A stretch of 64,000 bases of DNA from an uncultured archaeon (GCA_964534625.1 CAZHRF010000005.1:41973-105972); one strand, 5' to 3'; positions 13,963 to 19,287 are shown, counted from the stretch's first letter. Translations and numbers: made by a program. The notes: a model not told the origin generated them from the letters alone.

Positions 13963-14194
13963 AATAATACACCTATTATTGGTTGTATAATGTTTTTTTT
14001 TTACTCTTTTTAGACATTTTCCTCTCATCATAAAATTCGATATCATTAAATAAGATATTTAAGTAAATATTTACCAAACTTTATTCTGTACTTGATTTTA
14101 TTAAGTGCTAGCAAAATCAATGTCGATAGTTTTTTCACAAAAGTTTTGTTCCCGCTTGAATCATTAGTTCTCTCAGTCATTTACAAAAAAGAAG

Positions 14195-14666
14195 ATATGG
14201 TGACCACGTGAAAATGCAGAAAAAGTTCATATGACTCCTCATCGAACTTTTCTTGTTCCATTAGAGACTTGCATAGTCAAACCTATTACGACCTTGCTCT
14301 TTTCCGTTCTTTCACTGTACTCGGCCAATGGTCGCAGTACCAGACAGTCAACTCGTCAACTCCTTAACGTGGAATGACAGTTGCTATCATCCCGGAGGTG
14401 GTGGGGTTCTTCAGGAGCCCCGATGAAACCCTTGAGGGCCACAAATGAGTCCCGGGAAGAATGTCGCGATGATCCCTCACACTGGCGCTAATCTTGTAGA
14501 TTGCTGGTGTAATCTTGACACTTATCGCTCCCAGGTGTAACAACACTGGATACCTTGGTATCCTTGTGTTGTTCTCCTTTTGTCATGTGTCCAGTTGGGT
14601 GAGGTGATATACTTGCGGGTAACCGTGGGTCACTTACCCAAAAGTACCCAAAAGAACTCATAGCAT
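14195..14666 (+). ncRNA. Candidate large structured non-coding RNA of unrecognised family
   Basis: GC-rich island with no credible ORF and at least 11 mutually nested helices; G.U wobbles favour the + strand; ends are approximate. Confidence 0.7.
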
Positions 14667-14770
14667 CTGTCTATTGAATATTTTGAATTATTGAAAACGA
14701 CAGAAAATATTTTTAAATCAACAATGTATAATAGATACTAGTTATCATAAACAAAAAGAGTGAATATAAA

Positions 14771-18646: not shown

Positions 18647-19037
18647 ACTACCACTGCCTACAGGCAGATGGTTTCTTGCTTCAACGAAGTGGCCTCAAAA
18701 TGAGGGCTGAACTCTTCTCCACAAGCGTCGTCTATAGGTCCCGTTGTTCCGACGGTACATGGCTCTAGTACACACAACGTACCGACTCTACATCGGAAGT
18801 CCTCAATACCTTACTTAGGTAGATACGTATACCCATTATCGTTGTTTAATGTGTAGCTCTATCTTCTACTTCCATCTTTTTCTTTTTGTCTCGTACCACT
18901 CTTGGTTTTCGAGATGGCACCAAAGCAAGTACACAAAGACAGCATACTTACAAAATGTTTGTATGCTAAAACTGACTTTTGTTTTTTCTTCTTTTCATCC
19001 TCGCCCTCAAGGACGGGGTTTTCAAGAAGACGTTCAC
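18643..19037 (-). mobile_element. Non-autonomous IS200/IS605 derivative (no tnpA/tnpB) retaining the TnpB omega-RNA-like right end
   Basis: Left-end hairpin TCTTCTTGAAAACCCCGTCCTTGAGGGCGAGGATGAAAAGAAGA after TTTAT; right end ...GAAGCAAGAAACCATCTGCCTGTAGGCAGTGGTAGTTCAT; tnpB-tail motif TACCGTCGGAACAACGGGA...ACGCTTGTGGAGA; removal restores CAA TTA TAA at the host gene end. Confidence 0.8.
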
Positions 19038-19208
19038 ATAAAAATAAAAAAGAACACAAAAACAATCATCTAAAATAAACTACAAGAAGAAATACGTAAC
19101 GAAACAAAGATTTAAAAGAAGAAAGGTCAAGAGATAATTGCGCATAAAAACCTAAGGTAAAGGTTAAATGTCCCTATTCGTGTTTAATGCGCAGGTAGCA
19201 GAAATAAT

Positions 19209-19287
19209 AGCGAGGTAGGCTAGCATGGACAGGCCGCAGGGCTCATAACCCTGAGATCGGGTAGTTCAAATCTCCCCCTCGCTACCA
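19209..19287 (+). tRNA. Initiator tRNA-Met (CAT), CCA encoded
   Basis: Acceptor AGCGAGG/CCTCGCT (A1-U72), anticodon stem CAGGG/CCCTG with three G-C pairs, loop CTCATAA, TTCAAAT T-loop, T-tract downstream. Confidence 0.95.

Follow-up and report, generated by a model that had tools for sequence, protein, structure and literature searches.

Positions 14263–14661 of the window, a 64,000-nt stretch of DNA from an uncultured Heimdall-group archaeon, very probably represent a 5′-truncated, tnpB-less relic that consists of the omega RNA (reRNA) scaffold and the right end of a TnpB transposon. We base this assignment on sister genera, where the same RNA structure forms the 3′ and right ends of TnpB transposons. 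The kind of element is known; the family itself is apparently undescribed, is not in Rfam, and was not found in the literature on Heimdallarchaeum mobile elements (PMC8813620) or archaeal insertion sequences (PMC13343696). The genome that contains the window (G000) is a MAG of 3.37 Mb in 120 contigs and is 90% complete.

A first-pass annotation had described the block at 14195–14666 as a single GC-rich structured RNA without a credible ORF and outside the known families. Its account of the composition was sound. G+C between 14250 and 14650 is 45–56%, compared with ~21–40% in the neighborhood; the block contains no ORF of more than 60 aa, and its two internal ORFs have no Pfam match. With Rfam 15 at gathering thresholds, neither the window copy nor the full-length copies gave a match, and E ≤ 10 returned noise alone. 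The fold was better than those of dinucleotide shuffles on both strands, with z-scores of −3.2 (+ strand) and −3.9 (− strand). The block is not a single unit, however. It consists of a copy of the element (14263–14661) and part of an unrelated ~135-nt repeat (14128–14262), and the latter accounts for 14195–14262, including the T-tract and the hairpin 14218–28/14244–53 (AGAAAAAGUUC/GAACUUUUCU) that had been read as a 5′ domain. Three other copies of the 135-nt repeat, 72–81% identical, lie at C3:89554-89687, C1:41167-41030, and C26:31456-31561. All four copies have both boundaries in common and occupy divergent intergenic regions upstream of genes, and the hairpin, as read from the alignment, is not kept in the other three. 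On its minus strand, the window copy of this repeat looks weakly like a C/D-box sRNA, a likeness that the other copies do not keep; with a weak snR75 match (E = 8) and a D box confined to the window copy, this reading was rejected.

Within G000, the window block has 25 BLAST matches, and the element was found as 9 model matches, ~22 core motifs, and ~26 right ends, most of them at contig breaks. The 26 matches to the terminal motif lie mostly within 30–60 nt of a contig end, which indicates that the element breaks the assembly; these ORF-less putative omega-RNA elements do so at more than 20 places in the MAG. Nineteen aligned copies share the right end ...GTACCCAAAAGAACTCAT and diverge immediately past ...CTCAT into sequence that is unrelated from the next base, giving a sharp right boundary at 14661 in the window. 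The complete form is 570 bp long, has no ORF and inverted-repeat ends, and usually follows a left flank ending in CCAT; the reference copy (C27:21602-22172) measures 571 bp and has no ORF. Its left end (CATGGGTTTTTTTGGTCACTTTTGGGTAC) was found at 11 places and matches the right end as an inverted repeat of 27/28 nt, imperfect in this copy but perfect over 27 nt in one subfamily (v1). A TATA-like box (TTTAWATA) lies ~40 nt inside the left end of the 570-bp form in v1, in v2, and in a complete copy, 98–99% identical, on the unrelated metagenome contig OMKS01039176.1 (L176). Subfamily v1 comprises the window copy and short ends at several contig breaks. Members of v2 are 83–88% identical to the window copy and 99.4–100% identical to one another. 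Members of F3 are ~70–77% identical and exist as a long form (C1, C94) and, at six places, as a short form of 238 nt; the short form begins at an internal CCAT^GAGTCCC site (a caret marks an element boundary), for which F3 reused as a left end the CCAT^GAGT site of the P3 domain listed in Table 1.

The core motif, taken from the block at 14574–14609 and with 22 matches in G000, occurs at chance level in 399 other Asgard genomes. A BLAST-level search of 40 relatives gave no homologue, and the covariance model described below later found them. Two scans of viral contigs gave no match; a 16-mer scan of genome contigs, with a pattern that was too short, gave chance bacterial matches only; and the G000 assembly contains no abutted-end junction of the kind expected from a circle or tandem.

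The window copy is homologous to the complete element only from ~14263 on and is missing the left ~230 nt, and with it the left end, inverted repeat, promoter region, and TATA-like box. Because it has no left end and no TATA-like box, this tnpB-less copy is most likely an immobile relic; if it is expressed at all, this would be by read-through. Its neighbors are genes for a class I/II aminotransferase (− strand), a 56-aa histone-like ORF with no Pfam match (+ strand), and a THUMP protein (− strand). The adjacency to the histone-like and THUMP genes is accidental, because the flanks of the other copies are unrelated. The first-pass annotation had suggested a possible link to these genes as part of a larger proposal, that the block is a new stand-alone ncRNA, either a ribozyme or an RNP scaffold, and had named many dispersed copies, indicating a MITE, as a finding that would refute it. 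A GC-rich, structured, ORF-less block with no Rfam match would suit a cellular ncRNA gene of this kind, but the 25 BLAST matches and 26 right ends with their unrelated flanks, the contig breaks inside the element, the truncation of the window copy where it abuts another repeat, and the identity of the homologues as transposon ends make such a gene vanishingly unlikely. What stands is a large structured element on the + strand that shows covariation, for which "RNP scaffold" was a close description; what does not is the undescribed cellular ncRNA or ribozyme, a candidate now replaced by a tested explanation.

Table 1. Features of the element copy and the adjoining repeat in the window, and the two halves of a gene split by a v1 copy elsewhere in G000.
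Feature	Position	Strand	Remarks
~135-nt repeat	14128–14262	.	contains an A6/T6 tract; outside the omega-RNA element
5′ stump	14263–14316	+	no frame left; homology to F3 copies starts here, right after the 135-nt repeat
P1 hairpin, GUACU-CGGCC-AAU-GGUCG-C-AGUAC	14317–14340	+	conserved CCAAUGG loop
P2	14343–14388	+	conserved 5-bp base GACAG/CUAUC closing a hairpin variable in sequence and length
P3 multi-branch domain	14390–14457	+	P3, P3′, P3a, small hairpin CCC-UUGA-GGG, conserved GGAG, conserved junction AAUGAGUCCC (14444–53)
P3, UCCCGG/CCGGGA	14390–95/14452–57	+	6 of 6 pairs change on both sides
P3′	14398–401/14439–42	+	4 of 4 pairs change on both sides
P3a hairpin, GGGGUUC/GAGCCCC	14403–21	+	5 of 8 pairs change on both sides
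P4, GCGAUGA/UUAUCGC	14466–14528 (strands 14466–72/14522–28)	+	encloses P5
P5, ACACUGGC/GCUGGUGU	14479–86/14503–10	+	
Variable hairpin, AACAACAC-GGAUAC-CUUG-GUAUCC-GUGUUGUU	14539–14573	+	v1 and v2 only; folded
Block ..GUCAYGUG-UCCAGUUGGGUGARGUG..	14574–14609	+	strongest sequence conservation in G000, in all subfamilies
Right end	14610–14661	+	terminal hairpin, two direct copies of GTACCCAAAAG, terminus ...AACTCAT^
Unique 3′ flank	14662–14680	+	differs in every copy; candidate guide position per TnpB reRNA architecture (PMC13565253)
FBP aldolase/phosphatase gene, first part	C56:15345-15527 (L143)		model positions 1–61
FBP aldolase/phosphatase gene, second part	C30:39879-40787 (L144)		model positions 60–361

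Two alignments support the structure. First, we aligned 11 copies from G000 under a curated structure (alignment A1) and used slid pairing partners as the control; with all 11 copies mixed, the RNAalifold consensus was weak because the variable arms were misaligned, and the curated structure was used instead. In A1, 87% of cells were paired, compared with 32–46% after sliding, and 11 pairs changed on both sides, compared with 0–2. The compensatory changes between subfamilies fall in local helices, and four helices of the first-pass annotation (P1, P3, P3a, and P5) are borne out at the coordinates it gave. P4 was also correctly placed but is kept only in part, with two A·C mismatches in F3. By contrast, the long-range helices of that annotation were not retained: in other subfamilies, 14356–61/14593–98 and 14374–80/14580–86 give way to the local variable hairpin P2 or are deleted (v2), and the presumed closing helix 14306–12/14651–57 makes use of the terminal inverted repeat and is absent in v2. 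A local P2 hairpin was found in all three subfamilies with differing sequences.

Second, we modeled the 5′ half by covariance (model R1; window 14316–14459, 33 pairs) and searched 83 genomes of the class. Of the 30 other genomes in the family to which G000 belongs, 10 had full-length matches, at up to 11 copies per genome, with E values of 7e-10 to 2e-4 and one weaker match at 9e-3; in six other families, none of 52 genomes matched. In an alignment of 17 sequences (A3), 95% of cells pair and 26 of the 33 pairs change on both sides, compared with 6–12 after sliding, although these pair counts are somewhat inflated by the fitting of the alignment to the model structure. None of 500 shuffles reached the score of this alignment. 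Seven of the 10 base pairs of P1 change on both sides among 16 distinct sequences, and 4 of the 5 pairs at the base of P2 covary. The 3′ half is also homologous across genera and aligns with compensatory changes in P5, which reads CACCUCC/GGAGGUG in other genera (read from the alignment). Within G000 (A1), 83% of P5 cells are paired and 2 pairs change on both sides, and 74% of P4 cells are paired. At the level of sequence, the junction motif of the P3 domain is nearly invariant across genera and the GUUGGG..AGUG portion of the 14574–14609 block is kept in them, whereas the counterpart of 14539–14573 differs in F3 and other genera. Uncompensated disruptive changes occur in single copies, namely C38, C27b, and the window copy itself, which has a C·A mismatch in the base of P2.

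The + strand is favored, as had been proposed, because invariant G·U pairs at 14324/14332 and 14471/14523 fall on the tnpB sense strand and the alifold energy of the 5′ half is −76.0 for the + strand and −63.5 for the − strand.

The genomic context of the R1 matches in sister genera carries the identification. In the closed genomes G007 and G004, R1 matches the 3′ end of a 1.86-kb repeat that is present in at least 12 and at least 8 copies, respectively (loci L205-L216 and L233-L238). The sole ORF of this repeat encodes a protein of ~500 aa, which we identify as TnpB from its GIDLG, CxxC...CxxC, and DLTGARNI motifs and its Pfam Cas12f1-like TNB domain. In G024, G005, G052, and G018, the match overlaps the stop codon of a 477–505-aa TnpB, and the RNA region continues for ~300 nt as far as ...AAAATAACTCAT^, a terminus shared with the window copy. 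In these six genomes, the module therefore has the position of an omega RNA, on the tnpB sense strand, over the stop codon, and up to the right end. P1 in the autonomous elements encodes the last TnpB codons (..VLSQWL; GLSHWLQSQ and the stop codon in G007/G004), and the counterpart of 14263–14316 in longer F3 copies and autonomous relatives is the 3′ coding end of tnpB. Other R1 copies, in G001, G017, and G016, are without an ORF.

The scaffold of the element, at ~310–345 nt, is longer than the reRNA of ISDra2. Its organization is nonetheless that of a TnpB omega RNA, which lies on the sense strand, crosses the tnpB stop, runs to the right end, and has a copy-specific flank beyond (PMC13565253); OMEGA systems of the IS200/IS605 and IS607 families were described by Karvelis 2021 and Altae-Tran 2021, as far as summarized in PMC13565253. 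The scaffold likewise starts in the 3′ end of tnpB in the sense direction and ends exactly at the right end, a copy-specific guide-like flank follows, and the element lies 3′ of a short TAM-like motif. It differs in having long terminal inverted repeats, no TnpA, and no Rfam family, and in the loss of tnpB at the window. In the autonomous relatives, the scaffold starts within the last tnpB codons, continues through the hairpins and the multi-branch domain, and ends exactly at the boundary ...CTCAT^. Transcription would read on into ~16–20 nt of flanking DNA, to be used as the guide; at the empty donor site, TnpB with its RNA would then cut beside a target-adjacent motif, most likely CCAT, and the transposon would be copied back. 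In G000, the family persists as ORF-less derivatives of 570 bp that end in inverted repeats, as short forms of 238 nt, and as truncated relics like that in the window. Were the window copy transcribed as an omega RNA, 14662–14680 would serve as its guide.

The insertion sites fit this scheme. CCAT forms the left flank of 10 of the 11 v2 copies and of ~20 of 25 junctions overall, and is also found in v1, long F3, the metagenome copy, and most short forms; truncated copies likewise begin after ..AT^. The first base of the right flank is G, A, or C, with no further pattern. These flanks suggest that CCAT acts as the TAM. An empty site in G004 (..GAACCATG^AGCGAAG) can be compared with a filled site in G007 (..GAA^CCATGCTTTAC...GTAAATCATG^AGTGAAG). 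Here, the element inserted at ..CCATG.., with 2–4 nt (AT, CAT, or CATG) present at both junctions, and although it occupies a CATG start codon, that codon survives the insertion.

A second informative insertion is that of a v1 copy in the gene for FBP aldolase/phosphatase (PF01950), the only one found in the assembly, which is split at about residue 60. Removing the element together with one CAT closes the gene in frame (...MTHDHGINSEVVHELAWD...). The insertion is antisense to the structured strand, and the interior of the element is unassembled. Overall, an open frame abuts the boundary in only about one quarter of the flanks, and about three quarters of the insertions are intergenic; with so few abutting frames, the element behaves as disruptive DNA and not as an intron. 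An intron of any kind was rejected on this distribution and on the antisense orientation of the one clear genic insertion. For group I and group II introns and IStrons in particular, there was no Rfam intron match at E ≤ 5–10, and by eye there is no terminal G and no GUGYG; for a BHB intron, the paired ends give no bulge-helix-bulge.

The ends of the element and the enzymes found bear on how it may move. The autonomous relatives carry only tnpB, between inverted repeats of ~20 nt (ATGCTTTACTTTTTGCG... / ...CGCAAAAAGTAAATCAT), and neither a Y1 TnpA nor a serine TnpA as in IS607 lies near the element or its relatives. Classical IS200/IS605 elements encode a Y1 HUH TnpA and have no terminal inverted repeats, with similar same-strand hairpins at both ends. 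We rejected this class for the element, whose ends are 27–28-nt inverted repeats: G000 contains no Y1_Tnp, the resident classical TnpB elements differ in having same-strand hairpin ends, and the sole Y1 TnpA of G007 is part of a different IS605 without an R1 match. IS607 elements have a serine-recombinase TnpA with an N-terminal HTH, GG ends, and no TIRs. We rejected IS607 and other serine-recombinase partners as well. In G000, the serine recombinases are of another type, with an N-terminal catalytic domain and a recombinase domain, and are not adjacent to copies of the element; no R1 match lies beside resolvase genes in G001 or G005; and the termini are CAT/ATG, not GG. IS110 bridge-RNA elements have a DEDD recombinase partner and a long specific target that is matched by RNA loops. 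This class was also rejected: the element has no sequence in common with the IS110-like genes at C63 and C20, and its targets share only CCAT. The near-identity of the 570-bp copies means that an enzyme acting in trans must have moved them recently.

The same observations bear on whether the element is a plain MITE of a DDE-type transposon, with pairing as a by-product of DNA-level constraints or shared descent. Its 27–28-nt terminal inverted repeats with a 2–4-nt repeat (AT/CAT/CATG) at both junctions and its mostly intergenic insertions, as for a disruptive DNA element, would agree with such an origin, and TnpB genes within TIR-bounded DDE transposons have been reported, as far as PMC13565253 recounts it, citing PMC10691335. 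However, shared descent or DNA-level constraint accounts poorly for 26 of 33 pairs changing on both sides across genera, for strand-specific G·U pairs, or for a module placed exactly where TnpB omega RNAs are found. The preference at the target concerns one side, with CC on the left only, and no DDE_Tnp_1 transposase was found in G000, a result on which an IS4/IS5 DDE partner was also rejected. We consider a DDE-type MITE very improbable. In a descriptive sense, the 570-bp and 238-nt ORF-less, multi-copy forms with defined ends are those of a MITE or non-autonomous IS derivative, whose autonomous counterparts in sister genera carry the same RNA and right end, with none assembled in G000. A close likeness is to PATEs and other ORF-less IS200/IS605 derivatives, which are also protein-less and multi-copy, have defined ends and a guide-RNA scaffold, and are mobilized in trans. 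The element differs from PATEs in belonging to another sequence family, in having inverted-repeat ends instead of same-strand hairpins, and in the truncation of the window copy.

The omega-RNA relic in the window has no tnpB at its locus, where tblastn gave no match to TnpB. Traces of the gene persist elsewhere in G000: the F3 copies in C1 and C94 give tblastn matches to TnpB residues ~394–476 and keep 50–95 C-terminal codons. The 90%-complete assembly contains no intact cognate tnpB, only a 36-residue fragment at the start of C17, and the G000 copies may therefore be without a protein partner. Alternatively, the ORF-less copies, possibly including that in the window, could be working guide-RNA-only cassettes for homing or gene regulation, transcribed from their own or a neighboring promoter, with an RNA taken up in trans by a TnpB, or by a TnpB-like protein with a dead nuclease, encoded elsewhere in the genome. 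The TATA-like box is kept in the 570-bp form, the 99–100% identity of the 570-bp copies implies recent spread, and G000 carries 11 TnpB-like matches that might supply a protein. We regard this alternative as improbable, given that the window copy is without the left end and TATA-like box, that the cognate tnpB is not assembled in G000, and that C38, C27b, and P2 of the window copy carry the uncompensated changes noted above.

Features of the TnpB proteins of the autonomous relatives also deserve comment. By eye, the cognate Heimdall TnpB has VVVGYP (as in the G007/G004 elements) or VVVGFP in place of the canonical RuvC-II Glu, and a Glu stands six residues ahead of the zinc finger (DERGTSSHC, NESWTSSCC). 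From these motifs, the nuclease of the family looks rearranged, in a pro-Fanzor-like manner. A second, classical-looking TnpB of G007 has IVIGDI, and this clade may therefore often be without the canonical Glu. TnpB lineages with a rearranged RuvC-II glutamate, and Fanzor proteins in TIR transposons, have been described (PMC13565253; PMC10691335; PMC10530073); the relocated Glu, as judged by eye, the TIR ends, and the long 3′ RNA of the present family are shared with TnpB2/pro-Fanzor/RIIr proteins and with Fanzor in TIR transposons.

Our results provide, for a long TnpB omega RNA absent from Rfam, a structure supported by covariation and a covariance model that works in searches, and point to a TIR-bounded, TnpB-only transposon family in Heimdallarchaeia. 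It is conceivable, although we think it rather unlikely, that these features together define a new type of TnpB transposon confined to one Heimdallarchaeial family, with TIRs, no TnpA, a ~330-nt omega RNA, a Fanzor-like relocated Glu, and insertion at CAT(G) that is able to preserve a start codon, and in which the ORF-less 570-bp derivatives, with their TATA-like box, would be mobile stand-alone guide-RNA cassettes served in trans. If true, this reading would bear on the rise of Fanzor-type TIR-associated nucleases near the root of eukaryotes.

Several observations concern individual loci. Two 35-nt mini copies consist of the right end only (GGGTCACGTACCCAAAAGTACCCAAAAGAACTCAT; C4:125491-125530 and C4:111330-111365) and have the same left boundary, after CCAT^ and TGAT^; they could be footprints or mobilized mini-elements. 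On C1 (L011 1–357, C1:13678-14034, and C1:14988-15530), an F3 copy and the 16S rRNA gene are close neighbors, the copy following the 3′ end of the gene at a distance of ~950 nt. At C27:21200-22543 (L002), a complete v2 element adjoins an N-terminal fragment resembling ileS and, on its right, a tnpB from a different IS that is truncated at its 3′ end; given this right flank, the locus is rearranged or chimeric, and a simple insertion into ileS was rejected. The end of the metagenome contig OMKS01039176.1 (L176 1885–1981) contains adaptor-like sequence (..ctgtctcttatacacatct) on the reverse strand, which we took to be an untrimmed Nextera/Illumina artefact, and the right flank of the element copy on this contig is another repeat of ~50 nt with ~14 matches in G000. 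Finally, ~90-nt left-end fragments of a classical IS200/IS605 TnpB element occur in the window at ~18952–19044 (C5:60924-61016), ~165 nt upstream of a tRNA gene (19209–19284), and at ~20 other places. The full element behind these fragments is at C30:32978-34399 and has the left-end hairpin CCCCGTCCTTGAGGGCGGGG and the right end ...GGTAGTTCAT^.
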